A stretch of DNA of 64,000 bases from a virus. Lineage: Duplodnaviria > Heunggongvirae > Uroviricota > Caudoviricetes. The notes under the pieces are model-generated. The model was not told where the DNA came from. It searched no databases and saw only the letters and a list, made by a program, of their open reading frames with translations. Made by a program: the position numbers and the translations under genes. The DNA lies in the IMG/VR virus record IMGVR_UViG_3300006217_000002; one strand, 5' to 3'. The first letter of the stretch is position 1, and every line of letters starts with the position of its first letter. Positions 9,406-28,924 of the stretch are shown one piece after another.

Positions 9406-10545
9406 ATGAGAATATTGTTATTAGCTGATATACACATTGGCAGTATAAAAGATATGACATATACATACAATGTCGTTACTGATATTATTGAAAAAGAGAT
9501 AATGTTTACAAAGACTGATATGGTTGTTATATTAGGAGATTATTTCGATAAATTATTTAAAGTTAATGAAGAACACGTATCAACTGCTATAAATATAATG
9601 TCATTCTTAGTTAGAGCATGTGAACGTTCTAAAACTAAAATACGAATTATATATGGAACTGAATCACATGAAATGAATCAATATAAATTATTTAACTATC
9701 ACTTTACATCTACATCAGTTGATATAAAACTATTCACAACTGCATCAGACGAAGAGATTGATGGTAAAAAGATATTATACTTACCAGAAGAATATGTGTC
9801 TAGTAAAGATAAGTTTTACAAAAAATATTTATATTCAGGAAAACACTATGACTATATATTCGGACATGGAATAATAGAGGAAGGAGTTCCGCTAGGAATT
9901 AAATTAAATAAAACAGCTTCTCAAAATGTAGAGAAACAAGTTCCAAGATTTAAATCTGGGGAACTTCATAAGTCAGGTGATATAGTTGTATTTGGTCACT
10001 ATCATTGTTTTAATGATATTGGAGATAATGTGTATTATCTTGGATCGTTATTTAGGAATTCATTTGGGGAAGAAATTCCTAAAGGATATGGTATAATAGA
10101 AAATGATCAATTTCAGTTTATTGAAAATACTCAAGCTTATATTTATAAAGAATATGAGTTTGATAAAAATTCTGATATATACAAAAACGCTAGTAATATT
10201 TTATCTGCCATAGATAAGATTAAGAAAGATAATAAAGAGATTTTCTCCGGTGAGAAAGTAGGAAAAGTAAAAATAAAATTCTCAATACCAAAAGATGCAG
10301 ATGCATCATTCAGAGATAATTTAAATTCAATTATCTTAAATGATAAACTGTTTACATTATCATTTCAGGAATGTGAAGAGGATATAATAGATGAAGATAC
10401 GACAGATGATAGTGATGAATTTGATTTCGTATTAGAGTCTATGGATATAGGAGATAAAATATTTTCGTTTATAAATAAGACTCACGATATAGATTTATCT
10501 CTTCAAAAAATAAATATGTATATATCAGAACCATTAAAGATATAA
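9406..10545 (+). CDS. sbcD: SbcD/Mre11-like metallophosphoesterase nuclease
   Basis: ADIHIG, LGDYFD, GTESHE, FGHG, FGHYH, YYLGSL motifs. Confidence 0.85.
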   Translation: MRILLLADIHIGSIKDMTYTYNVVTDIIEKEIMFTKTDMVVILGDYFDKLFKVNEEHVSTAINIMSFLVRACERSKTKIRIIYGTESHEMNQYKLFNYHFTSTSVDIKLFTTASDEEIDGKKILYLPEEYVSSKDKFYKKYLYSGKHYDYIFGHGIIEEGVPLGIKLNKTASQNVEKQVPRFKSGELHKSGDIVVFGHYHCFNDIGDNVYYLGSLFRNSFGEEIPKGYGIIENDQFQFIENTQAYIYKEYEFDKNSDIYKNASNILSAIDKIKKDNKEIFSGEKVGKVKIKFSIPKDADASFRDNLNSIILNDKLFTLSFQECEEDIIDEDTTDDSDEFDFVLESMDIGDKIFSFINKTHDIDLSLQKINMYISEPLKI

Positions 10546-12771: not shown

Positions 12772-14733
12772 ATGGGTTTCATGGAATACTCAAACAAAAA
12801 CCAGGTAAATATCATCCCTCAGCAGGAGTTCGAAGAATTGTCTAGAGAAGTATTTGGAGTTATCTCTAGTAATCTTAGGAGATCTCTTGGACCTCTTGGT
12901 TCATCTGCTACTATTTTGGATGGAACGTTAACAGAGGCAACAAAGGATGGATATCATATTCTAATGAAATATCGTTTCTTTAATCGATATAAGAAGATGA
13001 TATATAACTTAATTAAAGCTCCTTGTACTCGTATGAATAATACTGTAGGAGATGGTACTACAACTGGTATCGTATTAACTTCTGCTATGTTTGACAGATA
13101 TCAAGATGCTAAAGGAAAACTCGTATCTATGTATCGTCTACCTAGGCAGTTCACAAAAGCGTGGGATGAAGTAATTGAGGATATTTGTAGAAGGGTATCA
13201 GAAAAATCTAAGCCTGTCGATCCTACTGATTATGATACTATCTATAATATTGCATATGTAACATCGAATGGAAATAAGGAGATCAGTGAGGCTTTTGCCA
13301 AGACATATAATGAAGCTAAATCTCCAGCAATTAAGATGAAGGATTCTCCGACCAATAAATCTTATATCAAAGAGATTGATGGTTTTGAATTTCCTGCTAA
13401 TGCTATTGATGTAGTATATGTAAGAAATCAGGATCTTACAGCTGAAGAAACCGATGTAGCAATCATGATCTTTGATCATAAAATTGGAACAGACTTCTTC
13501 AATAAAGTTCTTGTTCCGATTAACGAAGTACTTCGTGCAATGGGTAAGAAGCTCATTGTAATAGCTCCATCTTATGATGAATACATGTGTGATACTGTAC
13601 TTAGGCAGTATGTGAATTTAGAATGTAACAAGTATGGAGTTATCAATTTGATTCTTACACAGTATCGTTTAGGAGATCTTACTCCTCATCAATGTGAAGA
13701 TTTAGCAGTAGTATTGAGATGTAAAACTATCAATGAACAACTTGCTGATGGATTAGTTACTAGATTTAGTGAGAAGAACAGTGATCAGATAGTAGAAGAT
13801 ATAATTGAAAACAATGAATATGATCTATACAGAGTCATTGGTTCTGCTGCTAAAGTGTTTACATCTTGTAAGAATGGATGTATCTTTAATGTAACTGATA
13901 TTGAAGAGGATAAGGAATATCAGGAAGCTGTTACCAGAGCTAAAGCTGAACTCGATGCAGTTATAAGTAAAACTGATTTCGAAAAGCAGAGTATGGCTTC
14001 TAAGGTATACGAAGCAAGATCACGATTGATGCAACTGGAAATGAAAAACTACATCTATTATGTAGGAGCTGATAGCGAGCTTCAGAAACAGATTATTTGG
14101 GATTCAATCGATGATGTTATCAAATGCCTGAGATCAGCTATCAAGTACGGTGTAGTTCCAGGATGTCAGTTATCTATTGCGACTTCATGTGAGGAAGCAA
14201 TTACTGATATCATGGAGGAGATCAAGAAATGTCAGGATATTGAAAAGGAAATTAGTTATCAATATCCTCTTAAGATTGAAATTATTGGTATTATTTATAA
14301 TGCCGTGATTGATGTATATTCAATTCTTCTTCATGGAGCTGAAGGTCTTGGTATGGTTAAACTTATCGACGGATGGAATAAAAACAGTGATGAGTATAAT
14401 AAATTAGATGAGGCAGAAGATGCTGAAAGGGACGAAGATAAGAAGAAAGAACTACACGAGAAAAAGAAGAAAGTTCAGGATGAATATATCGATAATATTA
14501 AAGAAAAAGCTAGAGTAAAGGCTGGAGAGATCATTGCTGAATCCATTAAGGAGAATAAAGTATTTGATCTTGAAAACCTTGAATACAGTGATAAGATTAT
14601 CACATCAGCAGAAACTGATATAATGGTACTCAAGGTAGCCTCTGAACTGGTTAAGATTCTTATTAGTGGAAATCAATGTATCTTCCTTGACTCAGATGTT
14701 ACAGAATCTCATCAGGAAACTATGGAAATCTAA
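12772..14733 (+). CDS. groEL: Phage GroEL-like chaperonin
   Basis: SLGPLG, TKDGY, VGDGTTT and GVVPG nucleotide-binding motifs; 653 aa. Confidence 0.88.
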   Translation: MGFMEYSNKNQVNIIPQQEFEELSREVFGVISSNLRRSLGPLGSSATILDGTLTEATKDGYHILMKYRFFNRYKKMIYNLIKAPCTRMNNTVGDGTTTGIVLTSAMFDRYQDAKGKLVSMYRLPRQFTKAWDEVIEDICRRVSEKSKPVDPTDYDTIYNIAYVTSNGNKEISEAFAKTYNEAKSPAIKMKDSPTNKSYIKEIDGFEFPANAIDVVYVRNQDLTAEETDVAIMIFDHKIGTDFFNKVLVPINEVLRAMGKKLIVIAPSYDEYMCDTVLRQYVNLECNKYGVINLILTQYRLGDLTPHQCEDLAVVLRCKTINEQLADGLVTRFSEKNSDQIVEDIIENNEYDLYRVIGSAAKVFTSCKNGCIFNVTDIEEDKEYQEAVTRAKAELDAVISKTDFEKQSMASKVYEARSRLMQLEMKNYIYYVGADSELQKQIIWDSIDDVIKCLRSAIKYGVVPGCQLSIATSCEEAITDIMEEIKKCQDIEKEISYQYPLKIEIIGIIYNAVIDVYSILLHGAEGLGMVKLIDGWNKNSDEYNKLDEAEDAERDEDKKKELHEKKKKVQDEYIDNIKEKARVKAGEIIAESIKENKVFDLENLEYSDKIITSAETDIMVLKVASELVKILISGNQCIFLDSDVTESHQETMEI

Positions 14734-14751
14734 GTGTAACAATATAAACCA

Positions 14752-14789
14752 ATATAGGAATGGGAGGGTGATTCCTCCCATTCCTATAT
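14752..14789. terminator. Bidirectional hairpin terminator closing the radical SAM operon
   Basis: 16-bp stem ATATAGGAATGGGAGG/CCTCCCATTCCTATAT. Confidence 0.8.
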
Positions 14790-14790
14790 G

Positions 14791-15336
14791 TTATTCAGCT
14801 TTTACATACACAGTCATACTCATATCTTCATAATTGGAAGATACTAACTTAAGATCTACTCTGATAATTTCATCACCAGGTCTGAAGAATACATTTGGTC
14901 TGGAATCCATGGTTATCTTAAGAATACAATATTCCTTGTCATAAAAAACATTTACATTTGGAATACTTACAAATCTTCCAAATACATTTTCTGTTCTGAC
15001 AAGTTCGAAGTCAATATCTTTCGGATATTCCTCATTAATAGGCATAGTTTCATTATTTAGTATTTCAGTGATGAGACATCCTATGTTAAGTTTACCTGTA
15101 GATGTGAATTTATCTCCATTAACTGTGATGATCTTATTAGGTAATGATTTAGCTCCCAATTTGTTATTAGAGTCATCTTCGATAATCATTTCTTCGTGTT
15201 TTTCATTAGATACCTCTTCTTCACCATTAAGCTTTCTCTGAACTGCTTCTACCATATCATCAGGAACGTCTTCCAGTGTTAACGCTTCCTTTTGAATTAA
15301 TCTTACGTAATAATTCAATAATGCTTTGTTTGTCAT
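14791..15336 (-). CDS. Protein with N-terminal CD1375-like phage tail-associated domain
   Basis: YYVRLIQKEALTLEDVPDDMVEAVQRKL resembles small CD1375/XkdX-type modules found near tail fibre genes. Confidence 0.5.
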   Translation of the reverse strand: MTNKALLNYYVRLIQKEALTLEDVPDDMVEAVQRKLNGEEEVSNEKHEEMIIEDDSNNKLGAKSLPNKIITVNGDKFTSTGKLNIGCLITEILNNETMPINEEYPKDIDFELVRTENVFGRFVSIPNVNVFYDKEYCILKITMDSRPNVFFRPGDEIIRVDLKLVSSNYEDMSMTVYVKAE

Positions 15337-15351
15337 TATGAATATCCTCCT

Positions 15352-16479
15352 TTACTTGCCGTTATATGTTAGATCATATTCTTGATCAATAAGTTGAGTT
15401 CCAATCCTTATTTTCTGAACCTTCTTTGTTCCATCTGGAACTTTAACTTTATTAACCTGGTGAATGAAACGTTGTTTTTCAAAATCAAATCTGGAAGAAA
15501 TCTCTTCCATATTAGCTCCTGCTCTTGATATAGCATTATGAATACCATTACCTCCAAAAGCAATGATAACATTATTTTTAGCTATTTCAAAATTCCTATC
15601 AATAATCCCAACGTTACAACTTGTATGGAATTGATGATATTCTGGAGTTCTTAAATAATATGGCTCTTCTTCAAATGCAATAACATCATCTATATTTAAA
15701 GATAATGATTCCGGTTTAGCTATTACGTACTCAGAATGATGATCTAAAAAGTCTTTTAAAAGCTTCCTGTAATAAATAGATTTCCCATAATAATTTTTGC
15801 ATTTGAAATTTACAGAAGAACATATTCCGTCAGGTTTTAAAAGTGAAGAAGCTATATCAAGATCATTTATGAATATTTTCCATCCGTGTTCATTATCATC
15901 ATTGAATAATGCTACAATATCGATATTAACAAACATTTTATGTTCATGAAACTTTTCTATAGCCTTCTTCATCATTTCTATATTACCAGGTATTCTCTGT
16001 TGTTCTTTATTTGAAATTTCATCGAATGATTGAACTCCAAAACTTACAGTTTTAATATTCAAATCATTAATGATAAAATCAATCATTTCATCACTAATGT
16101 CGAATGGATGAACTTCAAATGTCTTAAGTTTTATCTCATCATAGATAGGAATATTGTTAATGAGTTCAATTAATTTCTTTTTATTCCATAAAGTAGGTGT
16201 TCCTCCACCGAAATAAATATTATTTACTCTATCAGGAAAGGCATCTTTCATATCCTTTACTAAATTAACAACTGCTTCTTCATATAAACTTATTTGATTA
16301 ATATATTGATGTAGTGTATAGGAACCAAAAACACAAAACTTACAAATAGATCTACAAAAGGGAAAGTCCACATATATCTCGATTCGAGTATCATCATTTA
16401 TTGGATTATTTTTAAAATAATTTTTCCAATAGTTTACGAACTCTTCGTTATTATGAAGATAATAAGGATAAATCATCAA
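15352..16479 (-). CDS. HemN-like radical SAM enzyme
   Basis: IYVDFPFCRSICKFC (CxxxCxxC), IYFGGGTPT, TFEVHP, VSFGVQSF. Confidence 0.85.
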   Translation of the reverse strand: MMIYPYYLHNNEEFVNYWKNYFKNNPINDDTRIEIYVDFPFCRSICKFCVFGSYTLHQYINQISLYEEAVVNLVKDMKDAFPDRVNNIYFGGGTPTLWNKKKLIELINNIPIYDEIKLKTFEVHPFDISDEMIDFIINDLNIKTVSFGVQSFDEISNKEQQRIPGNIEMMKKAIEKFHEHKMFVNIDIVALFNDDNEHGWKIFINDLDIASSLLKPDGICSSVNFKCKNYYGKSIYYRKLLKDFLDHHSEYVIAKPESLSLNIDDVIAFEEEPYYLRTPEYHQFHTSCNVGIIDRNFEIAKNNVIIAFGGNGIHNAISRAGANMEEISSRFDFEKQRFIHQVNKVKVPDGTKKVQKIRIGTQLIDQEYDLTYNGK

Positions 16480-17294
16480 GAACCACCTCCTTTTATCAAT
16501 TCAGCAAGATGCTTAGGATATGAACAATATGGTTGTAATTTACAAGGTCTACATGTCTTTACTCTGTCACATGTATAACATTCTACAGGTGTAGTTCCAG
16601 GTAAATTGTGTGGACATCTATTAACTAAATTTCCATCAGGATATAATGTATATACATTATCACAATCATATTGCCAACTACAAATTCTATCTCCTATTTC
16701 AAATTTAGTATCTAGATCCCATAATTTATAAACTTCACATAACCATAGATCTGCTTTCTCAAAATATTCTTTTGTTACTTCTCCTACGTAATGCTCAAAC
16801 TTTATCTCCAATAAGCATTCATTGTCAAACAATTTAGCTATCTTGATAAACTCCTGAGGAGTAATTTCAAATAGGTCATCTGTTAACGTAATCATCACTG
16901 TATAATTTATTTTAGATTTTGATAATCTATAGCAATTAGCTAACCATTTGTCGAACATAGATTCAGATTTAAATCTATGGGGATTCCATGATGTTGATAC
17001 ATGATGTAGAGTTTTATAAAACTCAATAAGTTCAGAATCTAAAATAATCAGGTTTGTAGAAATAGATGAGATTTTAGAAACCCCATCCACTTTATTTGTT
17101 TCTACAACGTCATTCATTCGTTCACGATTTGAAGTGATCTCTCCTCCAAATAGAATAATTTCTCCATTGAAATTATTCAATTGACTTATGAACTTATCAC
17201 GATTAAATTCCTCAGGAGTATCGACGATAAAACAATGATCACAGTTAAGATTACATTTCATTGTAGGAATTGCATATAAAACTTTATCATCCAT
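16476..17294 (-). CDS. Radical SAM enzyme with Cys-rich C-terminus (SPASM/twitch-like)
   Basis: CNLNCDHC, FGGE, YDC..LYPDGN...CP, CYTC.....CRPC.....C. Confidence 0.85.
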   Translation of the reverse strand: MDDKVLYAIPTMKCNLNCDHCFIVDTPEEFNRDKFISQLNNFNGEIILFGGEITSNRERMNDVVETNKVDGVSKISSISTNLIILDSELIEFYKTLHHVSTSWNPHRFKSESMFDKWLANCYRLSKSKINYTVMITLTDDLFEITPQEFIKIAKLFDNECLLEIKFEHYVGEVTKEYFEKADLWLCEVYKLWDLDTKFEIGDRICSWQYDCDNVYTLYPDGNLVNRCPHNLPGTTPVECYTCDRVKTCRPCKLQPYCSYPKHLAELIKGGGS

Positions 17295-17310: not shown

Positions 17311-18264
17311 TCATATCCACCCATACTTTTTGAATTTATCTTTCATCTTTAACATCTCTTCGCAATGTTCAGGAGGATATTCAATTTTCTGTGATCTACA
17401 GCCATTACAAATTGGAAACAGTTCACAAAAAATACAATTAGAATTTACATGTTCTGACACATGGGGATATTTTGACTCAGGTTCTGCATTATCATTTTCA
17501 AGATCTAACAGATGTTCTTTATCGACGATATCACAGCAGTCATAGTAATGAAGAACATCATTAGCATCAACATAACATGTTCTGATCATTGCATGACATA
17601 ACATATCTTTGTTAATAGGACATTTATTCATTTCATGGAATTTACAATAGACCTCATAATCTCCTAAACCGGCTTCAATGATTTCAAAATATTTAGCAAA
17701 TAATTTGTATCTAGGATATGTTGTCTGTTGTCTTCCTTGTTTCGTTGCATTGTTTATACGTACATATGTTCCTAATCGTTTAGCAAGTTCTGCTAATTGA
17801 ATAGCTGTATCTTCATTATCTTCATCTAGAACGGCAATGAATGGAAGATCCTTTCCATTAGTATATTTTTTATACAATTCATATATTTCAATAAACTTCT
17901 CTTCAGTAAATACTGTGTTAGGATCCCATCTTCTTGTCTCTCCATAGTTGAAAGATGTTGTAATTCCTATCCAAGGTTCGTTGAATAATGGAGCCCATTT
18001 TTCTGGATGGAAATAGAAATCCTTCAAATTAGTCGTAATTGCTATATGGCAACCTGCTAACTCGTGAAGTTCATAATAGTATGAAGGATCTACCATCAAC
18101 GGTTCTCCACCACTAATGATTATTCCATTTGGTTTAATTGTTTCTATTACCTTTTTGATCTGCTCAGGTACACCATTTTTAGGATGAGATATTTCCATAT
18201 CTCCTGCTGAACAGAAGGTGCAATCAAAGTTGCACCTTCCGGTTACTCTTATAATCAATTCCAT
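17311..18264 (-). CDS. Radical SAM/SPASM-domain enzyme
   Basis: CNFDCTFC, SGGEPL, ITTN, C-terminal CIFCELFPICNGC...HC. Confidence 0.88.
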   Translation of the reverse strand: MELIIRVTGRCNFDCTFCSAGDMEISHPKNGVPEQIKKVIETIKPNGIIISGGEPLMVDPSYYYELHELAGCHIAITTNLKDFYFHPEKWAPLFNEPWIGITTSFNYGETRRWDPNTVFTEEKFIEIYELYKKYTNGKDLPFIAVLDEDNEDTAIQLAELAKRLGTYVRINNATKQGRQQTTYPRYKLFAKYFEIIEAGLGDYEVYCKFHEMNKCPINKDMLCHAMIRTCYVDANDVLHYYDCCDIVDKEHLLDLENDNAEPESKYPHVSEHVNSNCIFCELFPICNGCRSQKIEYPPEHCEEMLKMKDKFKKYGWI

Positions 18265-18267
18265 ATG

Positions 18268-19512
18268 TTACTTGACCTCCGATCCATTATTACCAATTAA
18301 GCTATCGATAACTTTCTGAATATCGTCTTCCAATTTTGAATTAGCTTCTTTTTCCAAGTTACTTTGAACTTCCAAGATCTTCTTTTCATTATTTTCTAAC
18401 ATATCAGGATCTACGAGTTTATCGAAATATCTAACTTTCATATGTCCAATATCGCTGAATAACTTATAGAAAGCAATATTATATTCCTTTTCTCTTGTGC
18501 GAACAAATGCTGAATTAGGATCTTCGTCTCTATAAAGTAGAATATAAGGCTCAAACATATTTACCATATATTCAGTAGATTTACATATAATATTCCGAAG
18601 AGATTCATCTCTATCAACCATTGCATCTACAATACGATTTCTTACAGTATCTTCATTCGATAAATACACTACTGCAGGGACAGAAGGAATCTTTAGAAGT
18701 TTTGCAATGAAAAGGATAACATTATCTTTGATATCAACTGCTGATAGTACTTCACCATTCATTCTTAAGAATATTGGATCTTTGATTCCATTCTTTAAAA
18801 TATCCTCATAAAGAATATTAAATTCCTCCGAGTTCATATCACCAAATACATGATCATTTTTATCCATATCCCAGTTATATACACTTGGATGAAGTGGTTG
18901 ATATCTATAATAGTTATACGGGATATCAACACATAAAACATGAATAGGATCCTGAAGAGACGGAATCAATAATCCTGATTCATAAACCTCTGTTCCGAAT
19001 GAAGTATAATGCATACTCTTAAATTGTTTGAAGTCATGTTGTTTTAGTACGATGGCTTTATCTACTGATAAAACACTATGAAGATCTACTCTATCACGAA
19101 TAATAGATGGTCTCCTATCAATATCAAATAGGTCCTCTCCATTATAAATTGTAACCATTGCATCTTCATTATGTTCAATTACATACTTAATATAGTATGG
19201 GTGTACTATATACTTCTCATGACCGCCGACATATTCAGACACGGAAAATGCATCGCGTATATTTGATAAATTAATTGAATCATCAAGATCTATAGAATCA
19301 AGATCATCAATTTCTGCTTTGTCTGATTCATAAAATAGAACATCTTTAATTTCCATTAGATTTCTAAACTCTTCCATTGTCAATCTAATGGTCTGTCTAG
19401 TTCTTACAGCAGAAGATGCGTATTCCATATCTATAACAGGATTCATTATAAGATTACTTGTAAGATTAGGAAACTTACAAACGTTTCTAATCTGGTCTTT
19501 GATATTATCCAT
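18268..19512 (-). CDS. Hypothetical protein of the radical SAM operon, with a degenerate ParB/Srx-like segment
   Basis: AAGGAGG RBS before ATG 19512; LYEDILKNGIKDPIFL...IAKLLKIPSVPAVV. Confidence 0.55.
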   Translation of the reverse strand: MDNIKDQIRNVCKFPNLTSNLIMNPVIDMEYASSAVRTRQTIRLTMEEFRNLMEIKDVLFYESDKAEIDDLDSIDLDDSINLSNIRDAFSVSEYVGGHEKYIVHPYYIKYVIEHNEDAMVTIYNGEDLFDIDRRPSIIRDRVDLHSVLSVDKAIVLKQHDFKQFKSMHYTSFGTEVYESGLLIPSLQDPIHVLCVDIPYNYYRYQPLHPSVYNWDMDKNDHVFGDMNSEEFNILYEDILKNGIKDPIFLRMNGEVLSAVDIKDNVILFIAKLLKIPSVPAVVYLSNEDTVRNRIVDAMVDRDESLRNIICKSTEYMVNMFEPYILLYRDEDPNSAFVRTREKEYNIAFYKLFSDIGHMKVRYFDKLVDPDMLENNEKKILEVQSNLEKEANSKLEDDIQKVIDSLIGNNGSEVK

Positions 19513-20239
19513 TATCATTTCCTCCTTGTAAAGAATCATTTAAATTGTTTATAAATTCTTGCTGAAGTTCGGGACTGCCGAACATTATTAACATAAAATC
19601 GATATATGGTAAATTATCCATTATTTTGCTTAAATAAAAAGCATTATCGAAATTATTAAAAATATTCTTGAAATATTTTGGTTGAGAATTTTCTTCCAAA
19701 AGAAGATTGAATGATGGAAATTGAGTAAGCTGATAAAAGTTACACATTGAAATGTTATCTTCTTCAGATACATCAAATTCACTTAGATCAAATCCTTCCT
19801 TGTCCTCTTCATGAAATGTAGATATCGCATATAGAGGTAGTGAATTTATAAACTCATGAATCACTGAGATAAACCCACTGTGATTACTATTAAACTTTTT
19901 GATTTCATTTTCATCCAAGATAGAGTATTTATTTATAGCATCAGAATTGTGTAATATTTCAATCCATGAAATTGCTAGTTCTTCGGACTTAACTTCAATT
20001 CCAGATGTCATCCATAACATCAAAAACTCATCTTTATCTTCATAAGAACATTTACTGAAATCCAATTTCATTTTAATACCGCTATTTCTGATAAAAATGA
20101 AACTAGCAAGTTTTTGTTTATCAATTGGAACAGGAAAGTCTCCAATATCAGACATATCAACAACCAACTCATCTGATTCATTAATACTGGTTATGAATCC
20201 AGGAATCAGTAAGTCTTTCATAGATATATGTTTAAGCAT
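19505..20239 (-). CDS. Hypothetical protein of the radical SAM operon
   Basis: 244-aa acidic ORF overlapping the next gene's start. Confidence 0.7.
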   Translation of the reverse strand: MLKHISMKDLLIPGFITSINESDELVVDMSDIGDFPVPIDKQKLASFIFIRNSGIKMKLDFSKCSYEDKDEFLMLWMTSGIEVKSEELAISWIEILHNSDAINKYSILDENEIKKFNSNHSGFISVIHEFINSLPLYAISTFHEEDKEGFDLSEFDVSEEDNISMCNFYQLTQFPSFNLLLEENSQPKYFKNIFNNFDNAFYLSKIMDNLPYIDFMLIMFGSPELQQEFINNLNDSLQGGNDNG

Positions 20240-20257: not shown

Positions 20258-20821
20258 TTACTTATAACAACTTGATTTAGAATGGCAATCAGAGTGGCAA
20301 TTTGAATGACAACGAGAATGACATAAGTCAACTCTTTTGACATTATTATGCTTATTCGCACTTCTCCATGATGCTAATAAATTAGCAAATAAAGTATTAA
20401 TAGAACGAATAGAAATAGTTCCATCAAGTGCAACTCCACCATTAGCAACTGCAGGAAGAGATTTAATATAGTTCGAATTAAACAAAGCTCTTCCTGATCC
20501 TGAACGTTGAACACTTATGTTTCCATTGGTATTGTAAGTTCTAGTATAAGTCCATGTTCCAACTCTGGTCAGGATTCGAGTTACCTCTACAAGATTATTA
20601 TAAATCTGAGAAGCTGAAATAGCTCCATCTTTAACTCCTACAGAAGGATTAGGTACAGATGAAAGAGCTCCTAAAATTGAAGCAGGTACCATTTCATATG
20701 AACCATCCATAGGTACATTTCCAGAATGGTTTACTCCACTAAGAATAGTGTTTTTTACCTGAGAAATAAAATCATTATTGATCGCACCTGTTGTGATAAC
20801 AGTATCTACAGTCATAGCCAT
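20258..20821 (-). CDS. Putative radical SAM substrate: virion-like protein with C-terminal (CHSx)4 repeat
   Basis: C-terminus VDLCHSRCHSNCHSDCHSKSSCYK; first gene of the radical SAM operon. Confidence 0.7.
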   Translation of the reverse strand: MAMTVDTVITTGAINNDFISQVKNTILSGVNHSGNVPMDGSYEMVPASILGALSSVPNPSVGVKDGAISASQIYNNLVEVTRILTRVGTWTYTRTYNTNGNISVQRSGSGRALFNSNYIKSLPAVANGGVALDGTISIRSINTLFANLLASWRSANKHNNVKRVDLCHSRCHSNCHSDCHSKSSCYK

Positions 20822-20891: not shown

Positions 20892-20921
20892 AGTGTATGG
20901 AGAGATATCTCTCCATACACT
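20892..20921. terminator. Perfect 30-bp palindrome, probable terminator or processing site
   Basis: AGTGTATGGAGAGAT/ATCTCTCCATACACT between the fibre genes and the radical SAM operon. Confidence 0.7.
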
Positions 20922-20939: not shown

Positions 20940-21425
20940 TTAAGAAGCAAATACAGCTTTGAGTGCTACCCATTTATTTCCATGATAAACATACGGAATG
21001 AAATTCGTTGTATTAATCCAAAGCTCCTTATCGTTCTTAGGATTAGATGGAGATGAACTCTTGATAGATACGCGAATACCGTTAACAGTATCACTGTTAC
21101 CTCCACCTGCTTTGAATGTTTCAGGAATTTCAAGAAGATCAGGATATCTACCTGTATGAGCTACAACACTCAATCCTGTAATCATTGTATACGGGTGAGT
21201 AGGTGGATGAGGGTTGTTAAGAGCTCCATCTTCAATACCAGCAAGTTTGCTCTTCTCTGCGTTTGTATAATCATTAGTACTAAACCCAGGAACAGTACCA
21301 TTTCCAAGACGGTGGTTTGCTACTCCCCCAGATCCAAGATGATTAGCAAAATCAACTACTACCTTATCCCACTTAGTACGCTCTTCAATACTAACGTGTT
21401 GTTTGATATCAGCATTATTAGGCAT
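20940..21425 (-). CDS. Small tail-fibre-associated protein
   Basis: HVSIEERTKWD and TNDYTNAEKSKLAGIEDGA are typical fibre motifs; the first is shared with the 1121-aa fibre (HITEEERDKWN). Confidence 0.65.
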   Translation of the reverse strand: MPNNADIKQHVSIEERTKWDKVVVDFANHLGSGGVANHRLGNGTVPGFSTNDYTNAEKSKLAGIEDGALNNPHPPTHPYTMITGLSVVAHTGRYPDLLEIPETFKAGGGNSDTVNGIRVSIKSSSPSNPKNDKELWINTTNFIPYVYHGNKWVALKAVFAS

Positions 21426-21439
21426 ATAAGTTTCCTCCT

Positions 21440-24400
21440 TTATTTAAATTTCCTTATAGGCAATGTATCAGTTGAGTTAGGACATTTCTCTTTAAACTTA
21501 GCAGCTCCATCTCCAGCAATAGTAATACCTGTGCTGAATGTAGTTTTACTACGTTCGAAACATCCAAATGTTAAACCATTGATTTCCATTCCTTCTGCAG
21601 CTGCAGCTGATACTGTAATGGTAGAAATCATATTCCAAGTGTCTCTCATAAATCCTCTCATATTAGCAGTACCTGCTAAAGCGTTAGGAAGAGTAAGTGC
21701 TTTGTTAAATGAGATACATCTGAACAAGAAATGATCCAAACATCTTGCTCCTGTAACGCCAGCAGGGATAGTAAGAGCCTGATTGAACGTACTGCAATAT
21801 TCTAAGAATCTCATCAAACATTGCTCGCCAGTTAAACTAGCAGGGATAGTAAGAGCCTGATTGAACTTAGTACAGCCAGAAAGAAATCTCTTCATAGCTC
21901 CTTTACCTGTAACGCCAGCAGGGATAGTAACTGCACTATTGAATGCTGTACAATTCTTCAAAAATCCATGTAAACATTCTTCTCCTGTAACGCCAGCAGG
22001 GATAGTAAGAGCCTGATTGAACTTAGTACATCCTTCCAGGAATTCCATTAAGCAGCGATCTCCTGTAACATTTGGAATTCTATTAACTTTAACAAGGTTA
22101 ATGAAGTTACATCCAAAACTACGTAAAGATGTAGGAACTGTCAATCCCGTATCAGCTTTCCAGAATTCAACTTCAGTAATATCGCTCTTCTTAAATACTT
22201 TTCCAGCAATATTAATATTTGAATTTGCTACCCTATGATTACATAATCTACTTAACTGAGACATCCATTTGATTATAACTGTTTCCCCACTAGCAAGTTT
22301 CACTTTAGCTAAAGGATCATCATCAGTAGCTTTAGTTTTATTAGGATCTTCTGCAATAGTTATTTCAAAATCCTGATAATATGATTCTGCCTGGAATACA
22401 ATTTTTTCAGGATCATTTTCTTTTGCATCTTTATACCATTCATAAGCTTCATGTTTACCCTGAGGAACTTCAGCTCTGATTTTAATCTTCTTTCCAACAT
22501 CTTCATTACCAATGGTAAGTGTTCCATCATTTGTAATACTTGTGCCAGTAGTTCCCCCGCTGTCAATCAACGACCATCTTACATCAGTATAGCTAGGAAC
22601 TTCTTCATCATACGTATTACTTTGCCTGTTTCCGATAACTTTATTTGTGTGACATTTAGGATCCAATACATATGAATTATCAGTTCCATTGACATAAACG
22701 GTTTCAGGAATATTAACTATGTTAGCAACTTCCATATATTCAGGAAGAAATGTTACATAGTAGCTATGTTCCCATGTAGAATTTGTTTCAGGTGTAACTT
22801 TTTCAATTCCATTAGGAACAGCAAATACGAATTTTGTAACTCCATCCTCGTAATTATAAAGGTAATAACAATCCATATTCCAGTCATAATCAGGATTGAA
22901 TTCAATGTTGTAATTCGTCTCCCAGTAATTCTGACTTTCAGTTCTAGGTCTAAAGGCTGTACATAATCCTCCTTTAAACTCAGGATCATTCGGTCTAATA
23001 GGAGAAACTTCAATTGACTGACCTGTTGCATTGAAAGGATCCGTTCCAAAACATAACATTGGTATTGGTCTCTTTGCTCTTATAATGGAGGGAAGATTCA
23101 TTCTAATACCTTCTACAGCAACGAATATATCAGGCGAAGCAGGAGGTACAATCGTAATACTAGCTGTTGCTACAAAATTAACTCCTCTTCGAACACCGTC
23201 TACAACTGTCATCTCAACCACTATAGGATCATTTATATTTTTAAGCCATTGATCAAAATAATCAGGAGGTGTAGGAGAAGGATTTCTGTTCCACCATGTT
23301 ACATTTTCATAGTCGATAACTAGCTGATTCTGTAAATTAAGACTGACTCTTGCAGCTGCTGGAGCGCTCTTAATTTTATATATGATATTTTTCATCGTAG
23401 CGTTAGATGGATACACGGTACCTGTTAAGTTCAAAGGCTCGTCAACAGGATCAAAGTTTTCAGGCATATTAGTAATGCTTTCAACAGATATCCACTCACT
23501 TCCTACGTTGATTGTGAATGTTCTTTCGTAGTTTACAGTTTCAGAGATACCTTTAACAATGGTAGCTTTAATTTTCAATGTACCAGCTCCTGTTGTAGAA
23601 AGTAAATCTCCATTCAATCTTGCTCCAGTAGTTCCAGCATCAGCAATACTATAACTAACATTTCTATATGTTGCATTTTCTGGTGTAACATTAGCTGTTA
23701 GTAATATAACCTCTTTAGCAATAATTGTACTATCGATTTGTAGAGTTACTCCTTCTACCGGAACAAACTTTGTTTTCACATCAATCCAAAAATCTCTTGT
23801 ATAATCCTGACTAGGACTTATACCTTTTCTTACAGTAGCTCTGATTAAACATGTACCAGCTACTCGAGCTCTTAAGTAACCATTATTGATATATGCTCCT
23901 GTACCTCTGGCATCAAGAATTGACCATTCGATTGTTTTAACAGAAGCATCACTTGGTTCAACGATTCCATTTAATAGAATATTGGTATCTGTATCAATAG
24001 TAGTTGAGATCCCTGAAACATTTGTAACTGATACATATCTCGGTACCACTACAGTACATGAAGCTGATAATTTTCCGTCAATAGTTGTAGCTGTAAATGT
24101 AACTGATCCTTCATTAATTACTGAAATAACTCCAGTATCTTTGTTAATACTAGCTACATATGAGTTAGAGCTATTCCATACTACTTTAGGTAAGTCAGCT
24201 GCTGCGGCATCTTTACCAATCTCAAGTTTATAAGTTGAATCTATATAAAGCTTTTCAGGAGCATTACTAATAAAGATAGATCCTAACTCTGCCGATACAT
24301 AGACATCACAGATATCTGAGAATACGTCTCGAGCTCCAGCTGCTGATACTTTACAATAGTAATAGAAATGACCAATTCTATTATATGGAACATTAAACGA

Positions 24401-25540
24401 AGATGATGTTTCTCCAGTTAATTCAGTACCATTCTCTGTAGACTTGGTAGAATTTCTATACCATTGATATTGCATGATTTTTGTAGTCGTTGAAGTTGCA
24501 TTTACAGCTAAAATATCTCCAGCTTTGTTCAGTGTAAGATTGATATTGGGAACTGGCTGACTGATAATTTGGATTTCATTTTCAACAGCTCTCACATTGA
24601 AATTTTTGAAATAACTTTTATCTGGACCAAGAGCCTTAGGAATAGTACATTTTAAAACAACAACTCCTGTTGATGTAGCTATAAGCTTATTATTTTCAAT
24701 TACAGCGTTACCAGATACTACTTCCCACACAGTACTCTGAACTGTTGCGTTGTATGGAAGAACTGTCATTTCTTCAAGAACGAATGGAACGTTTGTTACA
24801 ATATTATCAGGTAAACCGATTATATCAGTAACCGGAATAAATGCAGCTTCACCACTTTGAGGTTCAACATTAAGTACAGCTTTATCACTTCTATATACCA
24901 GTACTCCAGGAGAATTAGAAGGATATGCTGTATCCATTGTAAACCTGATAACAGCATTGTCTCTATTTGTGAACATTACTGTTGCATTACGCAATGTGAT
25001 GATAGATCCATCCCCCATTCTAACTCCCCAGTGGTTAGGATCATTACTGATAGTAAATACAACATCTGTAGACTGATTGGGAAATGGTATTGTAGCCTGT
25101 AGAGTTTTTGTATATCCATACTCTAAATTAGCTCCAGTGTTATCATCTATTGTAAATGCAAAGTATCCGCAAATGCTATTCATTTCAAACGGCCTTACAT
25201 CACTTCTTGCAGTAATTCCCCATGATGCAGTATCACTTCGATACATAAGAAAACATGGAGAGTTTGCAGGATATTTTTTATCCATAGTAAATAAGACTAT
25301 GGAATTATCTTTGTTAACAAATAATATTTCAGGGTCACGAATGGGGATGATAGATCCATCCCCCATTTGTGCAGCCCAATCTTCATGGCCTCTGCTGATA
25401 GTCAAATTGACATCACTAGCCTGAAGAGGATATGTTAATGCAAAAATACATTTGTTTGTATCACCATTACTATCACTGAGATTTCCGGTAGTGTCAATAG
25501 TAAACCCGTAAAATCCAGTTTTAGTATTTTTTATACCCAT
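21440..25540 (-). CDS. Large adhesin/receptor-binding protein: Ig-like (Big_2) domains plus C-terminal BspA/DUF285-like 26-aa repeats
   Basis: Repeated V.V..V...V.PxNAT...I.WS Ig-like units; YQWY...YYYCKVS Ig unit; CTKFNQALTIPAGVTG repeats. Confidence 0.75.
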   Translation of the reverse strand: MGIKNTKTGFYGFTIDTTGNLSDSNGDTNKCIFALTYPLQASDVNLTISRGHEDWAAQMGDGSIIPIRDPEILFVNKDNSIVLFTMDKKYPANSPCFLMYRSDTASWGITARSDVRPFEMNSICGYFAFTIDDNTGANLEYGYTKTLQATIPFPNQSTDVVFTISNDPNHWGVRMGDGSIITLRNATVMFTNRDNAVIRFTMDTAYPSNSPGVLVYRSDKAVLNVEPQSGEAAFIPVTDIIGLPDNIVTNVPFVLEEMTVLPYNATVQSTVWEVVSGNAVIENNKLIATSTGVVVLKCTIPKALGPDKSYFKNFNVRAVENEIQIISQPVPNINLTLNKAGDILAVNATSTTTKIMQYQWYRNSTKSTENGTELTGETSSSFNVPYNRIGHFYYYCKVSAAGARDVFSDICDVYVSAELGSIFISNAPEKLYIDSTYKLEIGKDAAAADLPKVVWNSSNSYVASINKDTGVISVINEGSVTFTATTIDGKLSASCTVVVPRYVSVTNVSGISTTIDTDTNILLNGIVEPSDASVKTIEWSILDARGTGAYINNGYLRARVAGTCLIRATVRKGISPSQDYTRDFWIDVKTKFVPVEGVTLQIDSTIIAKEVILLTANVTPENATYRNVSYSIADAGTTGARLNGDLLSTTGAGTLKIKATIVKGISETVNYERTFTINVGSEWISVESITNMPENFDPVDEPLNLTGTVYPSNATMKNIIYKIKSAPAAARVSLNLQNQLVIDYENVTWWNRNPSPTPPDYFDQWLKNINDPIVVEMTVVDGVRRGVNFVATASITIVPPASPDIFVAVEGIRMNLPSIIRAKRPIPMLCFGTDPFNATGQSIEVSPIRPNDPEFKGGLCTAFRPRTESQNYWETNYNIEFNPDYDWNMDCYYLYNYEDGVTKFVFAVPNGIEKVTPETNSTWEHSYYVTFLPEYMEVANIVNIPETVYVNGTDNSYVLDPKCHTNKVIGNRQSNTYDEEVPSYTDVRWSLIDSGGTTGTSITNDGTLTIGNEDVGKKIKIRAEVPQGKHEAYEWYKDAKENDPEKIVFQAESYYQDFEITIAEDPNKTKATDDDPLAKVKLASGETVIIKWMSQLSRLCNHRVANSNINIAGKVFKKSDITEVEFWKADTGLTVPTSLRSFGCNFINLVKVNRIPNVTGDRCLMEFLEGCTKFNQALTIPAGVTGEECLHGFLKNCTAFNSAVTIPAGVTGKGAMKRFLSGCTKFNQALTIPASLTGEQCLMRFLEYCSTFNQALTIPAGVTGARCLDHFLFRCISFNKALTLPNALAGTANMRGFMRDTWNMISTITVSAAAAEGMEINGLTFGCFERSKTTFSTGITIAGDGAAKFKEKCPNSTDTLPIRKFK
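21748..22030. repeat. 78-bp-period tandem repeats encoding 26-aa LRR-like units
   Basis: 41-bp identity 21748-21788 = 21982-22022; 36-bp identity 21839-21874 = 21995-22030. Confidence 0.9.
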
Positions 25541-25558
25541 AATCCGTTTCCTCCTTCC

Positions 25559-28500
25559 TTAATCTGTCTTCAATTCAATCCATGCTCTACTAGATCTATA
25601 TACTAACTGACATGGAGAGTTTGCAGGATATGGAGTATCAAGCTTGAACTGTACAACTGCATTAGATTCGGTGCGTTCAATTACTTCAGGTTCATTGATT
25701 TTAATCATAGTACCATCACCCATCTTGACAGCAAATACATTCTTCTCTTTAGATACATTGATAGCGAAGTTCATGTCTTTCATCGGAGGATAAGGAATTG
25801 CAACCCATACATATTCAACCTGACCATGTTCATCAGCTCCATTAACAGAAACTGTGAATGCACTATATCCGGCCATACGGTTGATGATTGTCTCTTCATC
25901 AGGATCATCCGGATCAATTTCAGGTTTACCAGGACCAAATGAGATATCAGATTGACCAGTTCCTGGAACAGGATTAATTAATTGCCATCTTTCACCATCA
26001 AATACAAACATGTGTTCATGGTTCTTACCAATCATACCATCTGTAAGCGTTTTACCTCCAAAACGAACTTCTGCATCACCTGTTTCATTTACATTGAGAT
26101 ACGTTGGATTATCTCTGCCTCCGCTCTTATCTTCATTCTTAAACATAATAGATACTGTTGAACCTATTTGTCTCATAAATACAACAGGATTCATATAAGT
26201 AGATCTCAAAGTTGCAACTTTATGAGATTCATTTCCATTTGAATAACAATCACCCTTTATTACACCTATAGCATTTCTTCTAATCCACTCTGTATTAGCT
26301 ATACAATGATCATTAGAATCATCAGGAGGTGTAGGAGTTTTAGGTTCTCCAGTAAATTCATACTGATTATGAGCTTCATCAGGCCAATGCATAGGAGCAC
26401 GTGTAGTATCGGTAGGATGTCGGTGATCTCCTCTAGCATAATATCCGTCATCAGTACCTACAAACGGAATACCATCCATCAATGGATCAACATTTGTTGA
26501 ACGAGTATGTCCAAACAAATCAACAGTGGCTCTTCCAAAAGTACTTCCAGATGGAGAAGTATGAACCTTTGGAGCTTTTGTAAGATTCAGATAACGACCC
26601 ATATTCGCCGATAACGCAGCTATTTCATTACTTGATTCAAGGTGATCTATTACATCTATTCCTGACATATCATGGATTATCTGTAATACATCTTCTACGT
26701 CTGCTTTCTTTTGATTTAAGATACGACCCATATTAGCAGACAGCGGTCTATCTGTTTCATAGGAGATGAGATTATCAATTACAATAGATTTGACAAACTC
26801 TGTAGTTGCAATACGAACTGATCTATCTCCAACAGGTTGAGTTGTAGTTGTAGGAGATTCTCTTAAGTTAACAGATGCAATGATGTCATCTCCTGTAATT
26901 GTGTCAGGTATAATTGTAGCCTTAATATTTCCATCAGTATCTACATCTACTTTGATATTCTTACTATTTACACCTAAGTATTTAGTAACTAATCTCTTGA
27001 TGTTAATTCTATGCTCATCTGCATTAGGAAGTACGAGGACTAGTTCACTATTTACATCATCAAAGTAAAGAGATTTAAATATAGGAATAATAGGAATTTC
27101 CAAATCGAATTCTGTACCATCACGATAGTTGAAAGTAATTGTACAAGTACTATCTTCCCAACTTACATTAGCTACAAAATTATTATTACCAACATCTTCC
27201 TGAAGCAGATTCAGTTGTCTCTTAATTCGGTCTATAGCTTCTTGTGTAGCATCTGATATAGGTTTATCTTTATCAGATGTATTATCTACATTAGGTATTC
27301 CTAATTGTTCTAATGTTACATTATGAGGATTATTAAAATTAGAAATATGCTCCAAAAATAAAGAGTTAGAAACTGCACCAATCTGTTCAGGTGTAACTCT
27401 ATGAGGATTGTTGTAATCATTTAAGTGATCATTCAGTCTATTTCTTACAACTGCAATATCACCAAGATCTACAATAATCTGCTGAATTCTATCTTTAAGA
27501 AGATCGATTTGTTCTGTTGCAGCACGTTGAGTAATGAAACCATCAGAGTTAGTTCCAGTCTCATCATACCATTTAGGTCTTCCATTAATAGAATCCCAGT
27601 TGACAATTCCATCCGGTAATCCTCCACCAGCTAGAATATAATCTCCTAATACATCAGTTAGCGATTTCCATACTGTATCAAAATCATCATCACTAACTTT
27701 AACTAAGATATCATTAGCTGTACCACCATCAGGAACGCCTTCACCATCAGCTCCATCAAAGTAATCAACTCCTTTAATAGGAGAATAACCTTGAGGTCCT
27801 CTGATAGTCATAGGATCAGGAGCTGTAACTTCAGTAGATCTAGTCCACGTTAAAATTCCATCTGAAGAGATTATAGGTCTCCACATTAAAATGCTTTCAC
27901 CTGCATCTCCTCCTTCATCATCTGCTGCACTTCCATCAAACAGATTAATGAATCTTCCCTGCATCCATACATACATCTGAGTATCATAGTACCTGATTAC
28001 AAGATCACCAGGTTTCATTTCCTGTACTCCAACTTCTTGCCATACAAGACCAGGTTTCTTTACATAAATAATACAATCCTGAGTTTCATCAGTCGAGTAG
28101 TCGGTCGCTGGTTTTAATGCAAAATAAGTTAAAGTAGGATCTGTAACTTCAGGAAGCTCATCACCATGAGCCAATACATAGTTTGGATTCCAGTTAACAG
28201 ATTCATATTCAACTAATACAGCTGTATTAGTTCTATCATCATATTCAATGTTTTTATAATTGAAGAAAGAGTCTCTGATTTCTTTGATCATTTCATCAAT
28301 TTCTTTCCTACTATATGTTCCAACTTGATGGGCTGTTACATTATGAGGATTATTGATATCTAAAATGTGTTCATTTAAATCAGATTGATCTGCTTTCTTA
28401 TTCCAACTCTCCCTTTCATCCATAGTAATATGAACAAACTGATCTGTTATATGATGATTAAAATCTTGGGCTGGAGCCATACTATTCCATTTATCCCGTT

Positions 28501-28924
28501 CTTCTTCAGTGATGTGAATATCCTTATCACGCACATGTGCTTCAAAAGTTGCAGCAGAAACTTTTGTATCCATCATTTCTCCTACAGCTCTTTCCGAAGG
28601 AACTTTCGAATGAGACCTAGCATTAGGCTCTCTATTAATAGTTTTAATGATTTCAGTCTCACCTACAACGCCATCTATTCCACTCCATGTCATTAATTTA
28701 CCAGCACCGCCTCCAGAAAGAATTGGCTGCTTTTCTGCAATAAGTCTATATATGGCATTAATTTCTTCAGTGAGAGTAGTGGAATCATCATCGAAAGTTT
28801 TACGAATTGCATCATATACCGTTTTAGGATATGTATAGTCATAATCATAAACGGGAATTGGTTCTTGCTTTCCATCCAGATAAATTCTGGACTGAACAAT
28901 TCTTCTTTCTTTCAATCGTCCCAT
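25559..28924 (-). CDS. Tail fibre protein
   Basis: NNPHxVT repeats, NVDNTSDKDKPIS, LSANMGR x2, IATTEFV, YARGDHRHPTDTTRA fibre motifs. Confidence 0.8.
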   Translation of the reverse strand: MGRLKERRIVQSRIYLDGKQEPIPVYDYDYTYPKTVYDAIRKTFDDDSTTLTEEINAIYRLIAEKQPILSGGGAGKLMTWSGIDGVVGETEIIKTINREPNARSHSKVPSERAVGEMMDTKVSAATFEAHVRDKDIHITEEERDKWNSMAPAQDFNHHITDQFVHITMDERESWNKKADQSDLNEHILDINNPHNVTAHQVGTYSRKEIDEMIKEIRDSFFNYKNIEYDDRTNTAVLVEYESVNWNPNYVLAHGDELPEVTDPTLTYFALKPATDYSTDETQDCIIYVKKPGLVWQEVGVQEMKPGDLVIRYYDTQMYVWMQGRFINLFDGSAADDEGGDAGESILMWRPIISSDGILTWTRSTEVTAPDPMTIRGPQGYSPIKGVDYFDGADGEGVPDGGTANDILVKVSDDDFDTVWKSLTDVLGDYILAGGGLPDGIVNWDSINGRPKWYDETGTNSDGFITQRAATEQIDLLKDRIQQIIVDLGDIAVVRNRLNDHLNDYNNPHRVTPEQIGAVSNSLFLEHISNFNNPHNVTLEQLGIPNVDNTSDKDKPISDATQEAIDRIKRQLNLLQEDVGNNNFVANVSWEDSTCTITFNYRDGTEFDLEIPIIPIFKSLYFDDVNSELVLVLPNADEHRINIKRLVTKYLGVNSKNIKVDVDTDGNIKATIIPDTITGDDIIASVNLRESPTTTTQPVGDRSVRIATTEFVKSIVIDNLISYETDRPLSANMGRILNQKKADVEDVLQIIHDMSGIDVIDHLESSNEIAALSANMGRYLNLTKAPKVHTSPSGSTFGRATVDLFGHTRSTNVDPLMDGIPFVGTDDGYYARGDHRHPTDTTRAPMHWPDEAHNQYEFTGEPKTPTPPDDSNDHCIANTEWIRRNAIGVIKGDCYSNGNESHKVATLRSTYMNPVVFMRQIGSTVSIMFKNEDKSGGRDNPTYLNVNETGDAEVRFGGKTLTDGMIGKNHEHMFVFDGERWQLINPVPGTGQSDISFGPGKPEIDPDDPDEETIINRMAGYSAFTVSVNGADEHGQVEYVWVAIPYPPMKDMNFAINVSKEKNVFAVKMGDGTMIKINEPEVIERTESNAVVQFKLDTPYPANSPCQLVYRSSRAWIELKTD

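Follow-up and report, generated by a model that had tools for sequence, protein, structure and literature searches.

Why does a tailed phage set a protein that ends in a run of Cys-His units beside several radical SAM genes, and what becomes of that protein? The question is raised by a 187-residue protein in the window, by which we mean the whole 64,000-nucleotide stretch of IMG/VR virus record IMGVR_UViG_3300006217_000002 (Caudoviricetes) that was analyzed. Multiple radical SAM genes within the structural blocks of jumbo and T4-like phages have been recorded as an unexplained oddity (PMC12390700, PMC5332604, PMC8541153, PMC8066314, PMC11898562). The paper on another giant phage, Aeromonas phage 332-Vera, cited here for radical SAM clustering, termed its eight radical SAM genes in the structural gene cluster highly unusual. 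The literature searched on phage radical SAM genes nowhere mentions the tailed protein, and no description of its family was found there. A preliminary description of the locus had proposed a peptide precursor, with a leader of about 165 residues followed by a 21-residue Cys/His core.

Tail and Body of the 187-Residue Protein

The only cysteines of the tailed protein are at positions 167, 171, 175, 179, and 185 (window 20261-20323; Table 1), and the tail reads C-H-S-R, C-H-S-N, C-H-S-D, C-H-S-K, and then S-S-C-Y-K, or (CHSx)4-SSCYK. As the preliminary description had stated, all five cysteines of the ORF lie in its last 21 residues, four of them at a spacing of four. Its observation that the units use different synonymous codons (TGT/TGC, CAT/CAC, and TCT/TCA) was confirmed, and recent slippage is ruled out because these codons vary among the units. 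The chance expectation for four successive CH pairs spaced at period 4 is 4e-8 across all six reading frames of the window, which contain one such run. C167, H168, C171, H172, and C175 are unchanged across 13 homologues, and the tail is the more conserved part of the protein, with a majority fraction of 0.77 versus 0.59 for the body. The tail is the probable site of radical SAM modification.

The body had been described as rich in Gly, Ser, Thr, and Asn, which agrees with its composition: the commonest residues among the first 165 are N, S, V, T, and G. The internal similarity that had also been claimed, between GAISASQIYNNL and GTISIRSINTLF, gives a local score of 23 against a shuffle mean of 22.5 (p ~0.43), and internal duplication of the body was dropped on this ground. 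By eye, the N-terminus (MAMTVDT...) has no evident signal peptide.

Structure prediction and a Foldseek search of the body, which the preliminary description had named as a check, yielded a confident fold with no relative in the PDB. An AlphaFold2 model of the tailed protein built from 21 sequences has a pLDDT of 86.5 and a pTM of 0.79. In this model the body (residues 1-167) forms an alpha/beta domain whose last strand leads directly into the first Cys, and pLDDT falls below 50 in tail residues 178-187. Foldseek against the PDB returned nothing at E ≤ 1e-3 for the body, and an exhaustive aligner (VIA-align wide) found no solved relative, with a best Z of 3.7. Because its fold is predicted confidently, albeit without a solved relative, the body does not appear to be a leader peptide. 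The BFVD fold matches of the body comprise family members and three larger paralogues of one uncultured myovirus, and nothing else. These paralogues (A0A8S5USJ7, A0A8S5USJ8, and A0A8S5USV2 of Myoviridae sp. ctijX18) are 504-660 residues long and share the body fold, which shows that larger proteins reuse this domain.

Table 1. Positions of the features discussed in the text, in window coordinates
Feature	Coordinates	Strand	Basis or remark
Three fiber/adhesin genes, p1121, p1366, and p161	20940..28924	(-)	PHROG tail-fiber matches; Pfam Big_2
Hairpin with T-run, 13-bp stem, 5′ boundary of unit	20892..20921	(-)	Terminator scan; after the p161 gene
Cys-His-tailed protein, 187 residues	20258..20821	(-)	ORF with ribosome-binding site; homologues; AlphaFold2 model
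Tail, residues 167-187, four C-H-S-x units and fifth Cys	20261..20323	(-)	Invariant C/H columns
Helper p244	19505..20239	(-)	Remote homologue of the canonical 240-residue helper
p423, clade-specific	18268..19539	(-)	No Pfam/NCBIfam match; 4 close homologues
Radical SAM A, 317 residues, SPASM-type	17311..18264	(-)	Pfam Radical_SAM
Radical SAM B, 272 residues, SPASM-type	16476..17294	(-)	Synteny and profile searches
HemN/HutW-like radical SAM, 375 residues, extra enzyme of clade	15352..16479	(-)	NCBIfam HutW/HemN; PDB 1olt
p181, last gene of unit	14791..15336	(-)	Weak CD1375-family N-terminal match, below cut-off
Hairpin terminator, 16-bp stem, 3′ end of unit	14752..14789	(-)	Terminator scan

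Transcription Unit in the Window

A terminator scan places the tailed-protein gene first among seven co-directional genes bounded by two hairpin terminators. It is followed by p244, p423, a 317-residue radical SAM enzyme (radical SAM A), a 272-residue radical SAM enzyme (radical SAM B), a 375-residue HemN/HutW-like radical SAM enzyme, and p181. Directly 5′ of the unit, and co-directional with it, stand three fiber/adhesin genes. According to PHROG, p1121 (1121 residues) is a tail fiber and p161 (161 residues) contains a tail-fiber motif; p1366 (1366 residues) has a Big_2 adhesin domain by Pfam and an LRR region recognized by eye only. Among the seven unit genes, three of them unannotated, no peptidase or transporter family was recognized with Pfam or NCBIfam. 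The tailed protein, p244, and p423 have no match in Pfam, NCBIfam, or PADLOC.

Translation of p423 probably begins at Met10 (19512): its homologues have lengths of 409-414 residues, and a start there would also clear the overlap with p244. A weak ParB_N-like lead for p423 (score 0.90) came from the ESM Atlas only, and p423 was rejected as the counterpart of the canonical 380-residue family (hhalign probability 0.4%). A T4-like late promoter, TATAAAT, 5′ of the tailed-protein gene was likewise set aside; the motif is uninformative because the AT-rich window contains it 37 times, mostly within genes. A GroEL-like chaperonin gene on the opposite strand (12772-14733 (+); phrog_5725, E 2e-61) converges on the end of the unit.

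A Large Phage Family

Sequence comparison places the window protein, which is encoded by a giant gut phage, as a divergent member of a large family restricted to phages. A word-indexed search returned 12 metagenomic homologues, the nearest of which have a four-unit tail and a CYK end. Scanning IMG/VR yielded 21 loci, whose proteins are 167-295 residues long, most of them with (CHxS)3-RGRR at the C-terminus. When 1.84 billion representatives, each standing for a cluster at 50% identity, were searched with a profile, 830 proteins passed E ≤ 1e-3, and 575 of them passed E ≤ 1e-10. In the best 150 of the 830, three CH units are present in 115 (range 2 to 8) and an RxRR end in 108, and S, N, or D nearly always occupies position 4 of the unit.

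The cultured carriers are Ralstonia phages RSF1 (ORF071), RSL2, RsoM3USA, and the FLC4 isolates; Burkholderia phages FLC6, FLC8, and SURPRISE13; and Pseudomonas phage pPa_SNUABM_DT01, Agrobacterium phage Atu_ph07 (gp170), and Sinorhizobium phage Phosso. Of these, RSF1, RSL2, FLC6, SURPRISE13, pPa_SNUABM_DT01, Atu_ph07, and Phosso are jumbo phages. RSF1 ORF071 seeded phrog_35144, a PHROG of unknown function, and matches it at E 5e-129. The window protein matches the same PHROG weakly (E 0.003 over residues 44-177), and the family profile built here joins it with ORF071. A nucleotide search with the operon, and tblastn with the window protein and a marine member, gave no match in 50,697 phage records; the tail was probably masked as low complexity. 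Because prokaryote representative genomes (185,579 species) hold three relatives only, all on MAG contigs, the family is essentially viral.

Several members are fused to other domains. P0092 and P0109 extend beyond the Cys-His run into a He_PIG Ig domain or a DUF285/BspA-LRR domain, so that the run is internal. An LRR_5 domain interrupts the body of P0122 and P0125 at a loop that corresponds to residues 115-137 of the window protein, and P0081 has a Gly_rich_2 domain fused N-terminally. These LRR, Ig, and Gly-rich domains are adhesin-type modules.

Smaller Cys-His proteins were also encountered. One locus (L018:9653-10156, IMG/VR contig 3300044712_000810) encodes a 167-residue protein with ~10 CH units and no recognizable family body. 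A second Cys-His protein of 86 residues is encoded nearby, and both lie among five radical-SAM-like CxxxCxxC genes that are only weakly related to the core enzymes described below. The two proteins look more like a true peptide precursor. A Fusobacteriaceae MAG contig (L026:7806-8432; GC 30%) encodes tandem small proteins of 90 and 109 residues that end in N-C-H-S-N-C-H-S-D-C-H/Y-S-N-C-N-S-S-S-G-C-G-D and have no match to the family body profile. This pair may represent the motif in peptide form, in a bacterium or a prophage.

A Conserved Four-Gene Core

In all 21 IMG/VR loci, two to seven CxxxCxxC genes lie on the same strand within 10 kb of the tailed-protein gene, and several radical SAM genes adjoin it in the cultured jumbo phages examined. 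A four-gene core emerges from clustering and profile searches: the tailed protein, a helper of ~240 residues, radical SAM A, and radical SAM B. By profile searches, the core is complete in ~20 of the 24 loci compared. Contig ends or crude gene calling account for most of the gaps; in L003 no radical SAM A gene lies within 10 kb, and the architecture of L018 differs. The helper, present in 22 of the 24 loci, is encoded immediately downstream of the tailed-protein gene in canonical loci. Its counterpart in the window, p244, aligns to the canonical helper with an hhalign probability of 98.6% (E 8e-16); the AlphaFold2 model of p244 has a pLDDT of 88, and a fold search against the PDB gave no match (best Z 3.4). 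Orthologues of radical SAM A at 30-35% identity occur in 19 of 21 loci. Radical SAM B usually stands immediately upstream, with a reading frame that overlaps the tailed-protein gene; in L002, the former ends at 9963 and the latter starts at 9947. In the 50,697 phage records, radical SAM A and the helper are found in the same 15 records. On the MAG contigs from Bdellovibrionaceae (L024) and Bacteriovoracaceae (L025), the tailed protein and radical SAM B are both present; the former contig carries the full cassette including the helper and radical SAM A, and the latter ends ~2 kb past the tailed-protein gene.

Canonical loci additionally encode a cupin, three or four 2OG-Fe(II) oxygenases, and a B12-type radical SAM enzyme. 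The window, L001, and L013/L016 have radical SAM enzymes only, without the cupin and 2OG-oxygenase families; the window has three radical SAM genes, and L001 and L013 have six or seven. These oxygenase-free loci suggest that phages of anaerobes run the pathway without oxygen, a host assignment that we infer. The gut-phage variant, with its four units, CYK end, and HemN-like enzyme and without oxygen-dependent enzymes, offers a natural comparison for identifying the essential steps.

In three lineages, represented by the window, L001, and L002, the cassette lies 3′ of fiber or baseplate genes. It follows tail-fiber genes in L001, and a baseplate wedge gene, a gene for a giant protein, and a fiber-like gene in L002.

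Enzymes of the Cassette

As read from their sequences, radical SAM A and radical SAM B begin at the CxxxCxxC motif and end in a SPASM-like CX2CX5CX2C motif; Pfam SPASM was detected in the L002 orthologue. Single-sequence searches of the PDB with the two enzymes returned nothing. With family profiles, radical SAM A aligns over its full length to the anaerobic sulfatase-maturating enzyme anSME (4k37, E 3.6e-11), and radical SAM B matches 8vpo, anSME, and CteB. The PapB model matches 10 of 11 radical SAM B orthologues (best E 3e-14, below cut-off), which also match DarE, DynA, and other curated models; radical SAM B most resembles peptide maturases of the PapB, DarE, and CteB kind. The HemN-like enzyme matches NCBIfam HutW/HemN over its N-terminal part only, far below cut-off, and PDB 1olt at E 2.8e-8; it has no counterpart among the fetched loci. 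No enzyme of the unit reached the cut-off of a curated family, and radical SAM A and B are therefore regarded as new subfamilies of SPASM peptide/protein maturases.

Proposed Function and Alternatives

Our best reading, to which we assign a probability of about 0.55, is that the cassette tailors the Cys-His segment of an intact, probably fiber-associated protein. Because the family nearly always adjoins the same helper and two radical SAM enzymes, chemical modification of the tail is probable, with the rest of the protein left attached. The 187-residue protein would be the substrate of a phage-specific maturation cassette in which the two SPASM enzymes take hydrogen atoms from the tail and the helper perhaps presents them with the substrate. 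The resulting covalent links would most likely be Cys thioethers to the S/N/D residue at position 4, or carbon cross-links of His/Cys; for members of the family, this tail chemistry is a guess. An additional reaction, for example the addition of one carbon, might fall to the HemN-like enzyme. The modified protein would remain uncleaved and act whole, yielding no free peptide, and would supply a stapled, possibly metal-binding segment of a modular accessory protein of the fiber/adhesin apparatus.

The preliminary description had inferred that the leader is a retained virion-docking domain. Virion or fiber association of the tailed protein is plausible because its gene follows tail-fiber/baseplate genes and because members are fused to adhesin domains. 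The same fusions and gene position argue against a leader-core peptide and for a modular surface or fiber-associated protein. In the GenBank records of RSF1, RSL2, and Atu_ph07, the homologue is annotated as 'hypothetical protein' and its neighbors as 'virion structural protein'. The virion proteomics table of phiRP31, a phage without the family, lists no relevant protein (PMC5468394).

The Cys/His repeat could also bind metal without enzymatic change. In an oligomer, layers of Cys and His would then coordinate Fe or Zn, and the neighboring radical SAM enzymes would have another target, such as a fiber protein or a small molecule. His motifs coordinate metal in the fiber tips and spikes of phages, as in T4 gp37 and P2 gpV, and an adjacent Cys and His at a fixed period would give two ligands per chain per layer. 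The variation in repeat number, from 2 to 8 or more, resembles that of a variable-length stalk, and the adhesin fusions and fiber-gene context suit a structural protein. However, the same two SPASM enzymes are near-universal in synteny with the tailed protein, often with overlapping reading frames, and a position 4 restricted in this way to S, N, or D would be expected of cross-link acceptors more than of metal sites. We consider a plain metal site unlikely.

Somewhat less probable still is a true RiPP, in which the body is an unusually long leader or scaffold and the modified tail is cut off to act as a free peptide, for instance a metallophore, toxin, or signal. Most members do carry the motif at the C-terminus, with SPASM maturases encoded directly alongside, an arrangement known from RiPP precursors; multi-block tails such as that of P0126 resemble multi-core precursors; and small Cys-His proteins of 86-109 residues occur beside radical SAM genes in L018 and as a tandem pair in L026. 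Against this, no protease, exporter, or cleavage motif is recognized in the unit, the first Cys is predicted to sit at the end of the last strand of the conserved fold, some members continue past the repeat into Ig or LRR domains, and conservation spans the entire body.

The precursor idea of the preliminary description is retained in part: the tail is very probably a radical SAM substrate, as several radical SAM genes adjoin it, whereas the leader logic is not supported. The 165-residue part is a compact, confidently predicted alpha/beta fold (pLDDT 86.5) conserved across 830 cluster representatives. Some relatives have Ig or LRR domains C-terminal to an internal Cys-His run, and the unit lacks a recognizable protease or exporter, which also speaks against a leader.

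It is very improbable that the protein is an accessory factor rather than a substrate, serving as an Fe-S/metal carrier or electron donor for the many radical SAM enzymes of the phage: its tail is rich in Cys/His, and genes for Fe-S assembly are present as well in marine phages that have numerous radical SAM genes (PMC5332604), but adhesin-type LRR, Ig, and Gly-rich fusions make no sense for a cluster carrier, and the protein does not resemble IscU, A-type carriers, or ferredoxins.

Returning to tailoring of an intact protein, a more general formulation can be offered tentatively, at less than even odds. Large phages would possess a dedicated radical SAM pathway that cross-links a Cys-His repeat, or builds a metal site, in a modular fiber-associated adhesin scaffold, which would be the first radical-SAM-tailored virion protein; phages of anaerobes, that of the window among them, would use radical SAM enzymes alone, and aerobic relatives would add a cupin and 2OG oxygenases. 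If the tail is indeed cross-linked or made into a metal site, it would represent new post-translational chemistry on a phage particle or adhesion protein, and the modification could bear on fiber stability and host recognition. The family offers a concrete candidate substrate and a four-gene core open to expression and assay.

Comparison with Known Systems

Several described systems resemble parts of the cassette. The model for maturases of CXXX-repeat radical SAM targets (TIGR04115) matches 6 of 11 radical SAM B orthologues weakly (best E 2e-9) and does not match the window's own radical SAM B, which we accordingly do not place in that family. The likeness to anSME lies in a minimal SPASM radical SAM enzyme that modifies a Cys or Ser of a whole protein, and anSME is the best solved relative of radical SAM A. 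The anSME model (TIGR03942) gives a weak match in 8 of 11 orthologues and none for the window's own enzyme. Unlike the anSME system, the cassette contains no sulfatase, and the tail has no C/S-x-P/A-x-R motif.

Triceptides carry three-residue cyclophanes, including those made by the His-modifying enzymes HaaB and HtkB (PMC11499958). The His-Ser-x of every unit could be read as an aromatic-X-X motif, and the cyclophane maturase models XyeB, AmcB, YhhB, and FxsB give weak matches, to orthologues only and below cut-offs. Here, however, Cys is the invariant partner in each unit, and the substrate is a folded protein.

Ranthipeptides contain thioether bonds to non-alpha carbons. In the PapB/freyrasin type, thioethers are formed in Cys-X3-Asp units (PMC9413430) of a short leader-core precursor. 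As in that system, repeated Cys units adjoin a radical SAM enzyme, here one of SPASM-like type, and PapB is the most widely matched curated model of radical SAM B. In contrast, the unit here is C-H-S-[S/N/D/R/K] rather than C-X3-D/E, the substrate is a 187-residue folded protein with no recognizable leader or RRE, and the enzymes start at CxxxCxxC without an N-terminal extension.

[quoted passage not shown] Its effector contains His-Xaa-Ser repeats that are matured by two radical SAM enzymes and HxsD, with a change of +8 Da on SHRSS; HXS is a bacterial defense system whose periplasmic effector binds peptidoglycan (PMC13128918). Both systems combine a folded protein bearing a short His/Ser repeat with two radical SAM enzymes and a small partner (PMC13128918). 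HxsA acts as a protein, not a short peptide, and so offers a precedent for our reading. The HxS repeat, however, has period 3 and is Cys-free, whereas the phage tail is built of C-H-S-x at period 4. The preliminary description had already set the tail apart from the period-3 His-Xaa-Ser family, and rightly so: besides the period of 4, there is no NCBIfam match at E ≤ 0.1. The HxsC model (TIGR03977) scores 27.6 bits against a cut-off of 267.9, over the N-terminal 55 residues only, and the HxsB model (TIGR03978) has matches (E 2e-10) in 5 of the 11 radical SAM B orthologues but none to the window's own enzyme; both models score far below their cut-offs. The contexts also differ, with a bacterial chromosomal locus and an exported effector on one side and, on the other, a phage locus placed after tail-fiber genes and a family nearly absent from the prokaryote representative genomes. 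By motif, enzymes, and context, the cassette is not a member of HXS; if our reading is correct, it would be the phage-side counterpart of the bacterial HXS defense effector.
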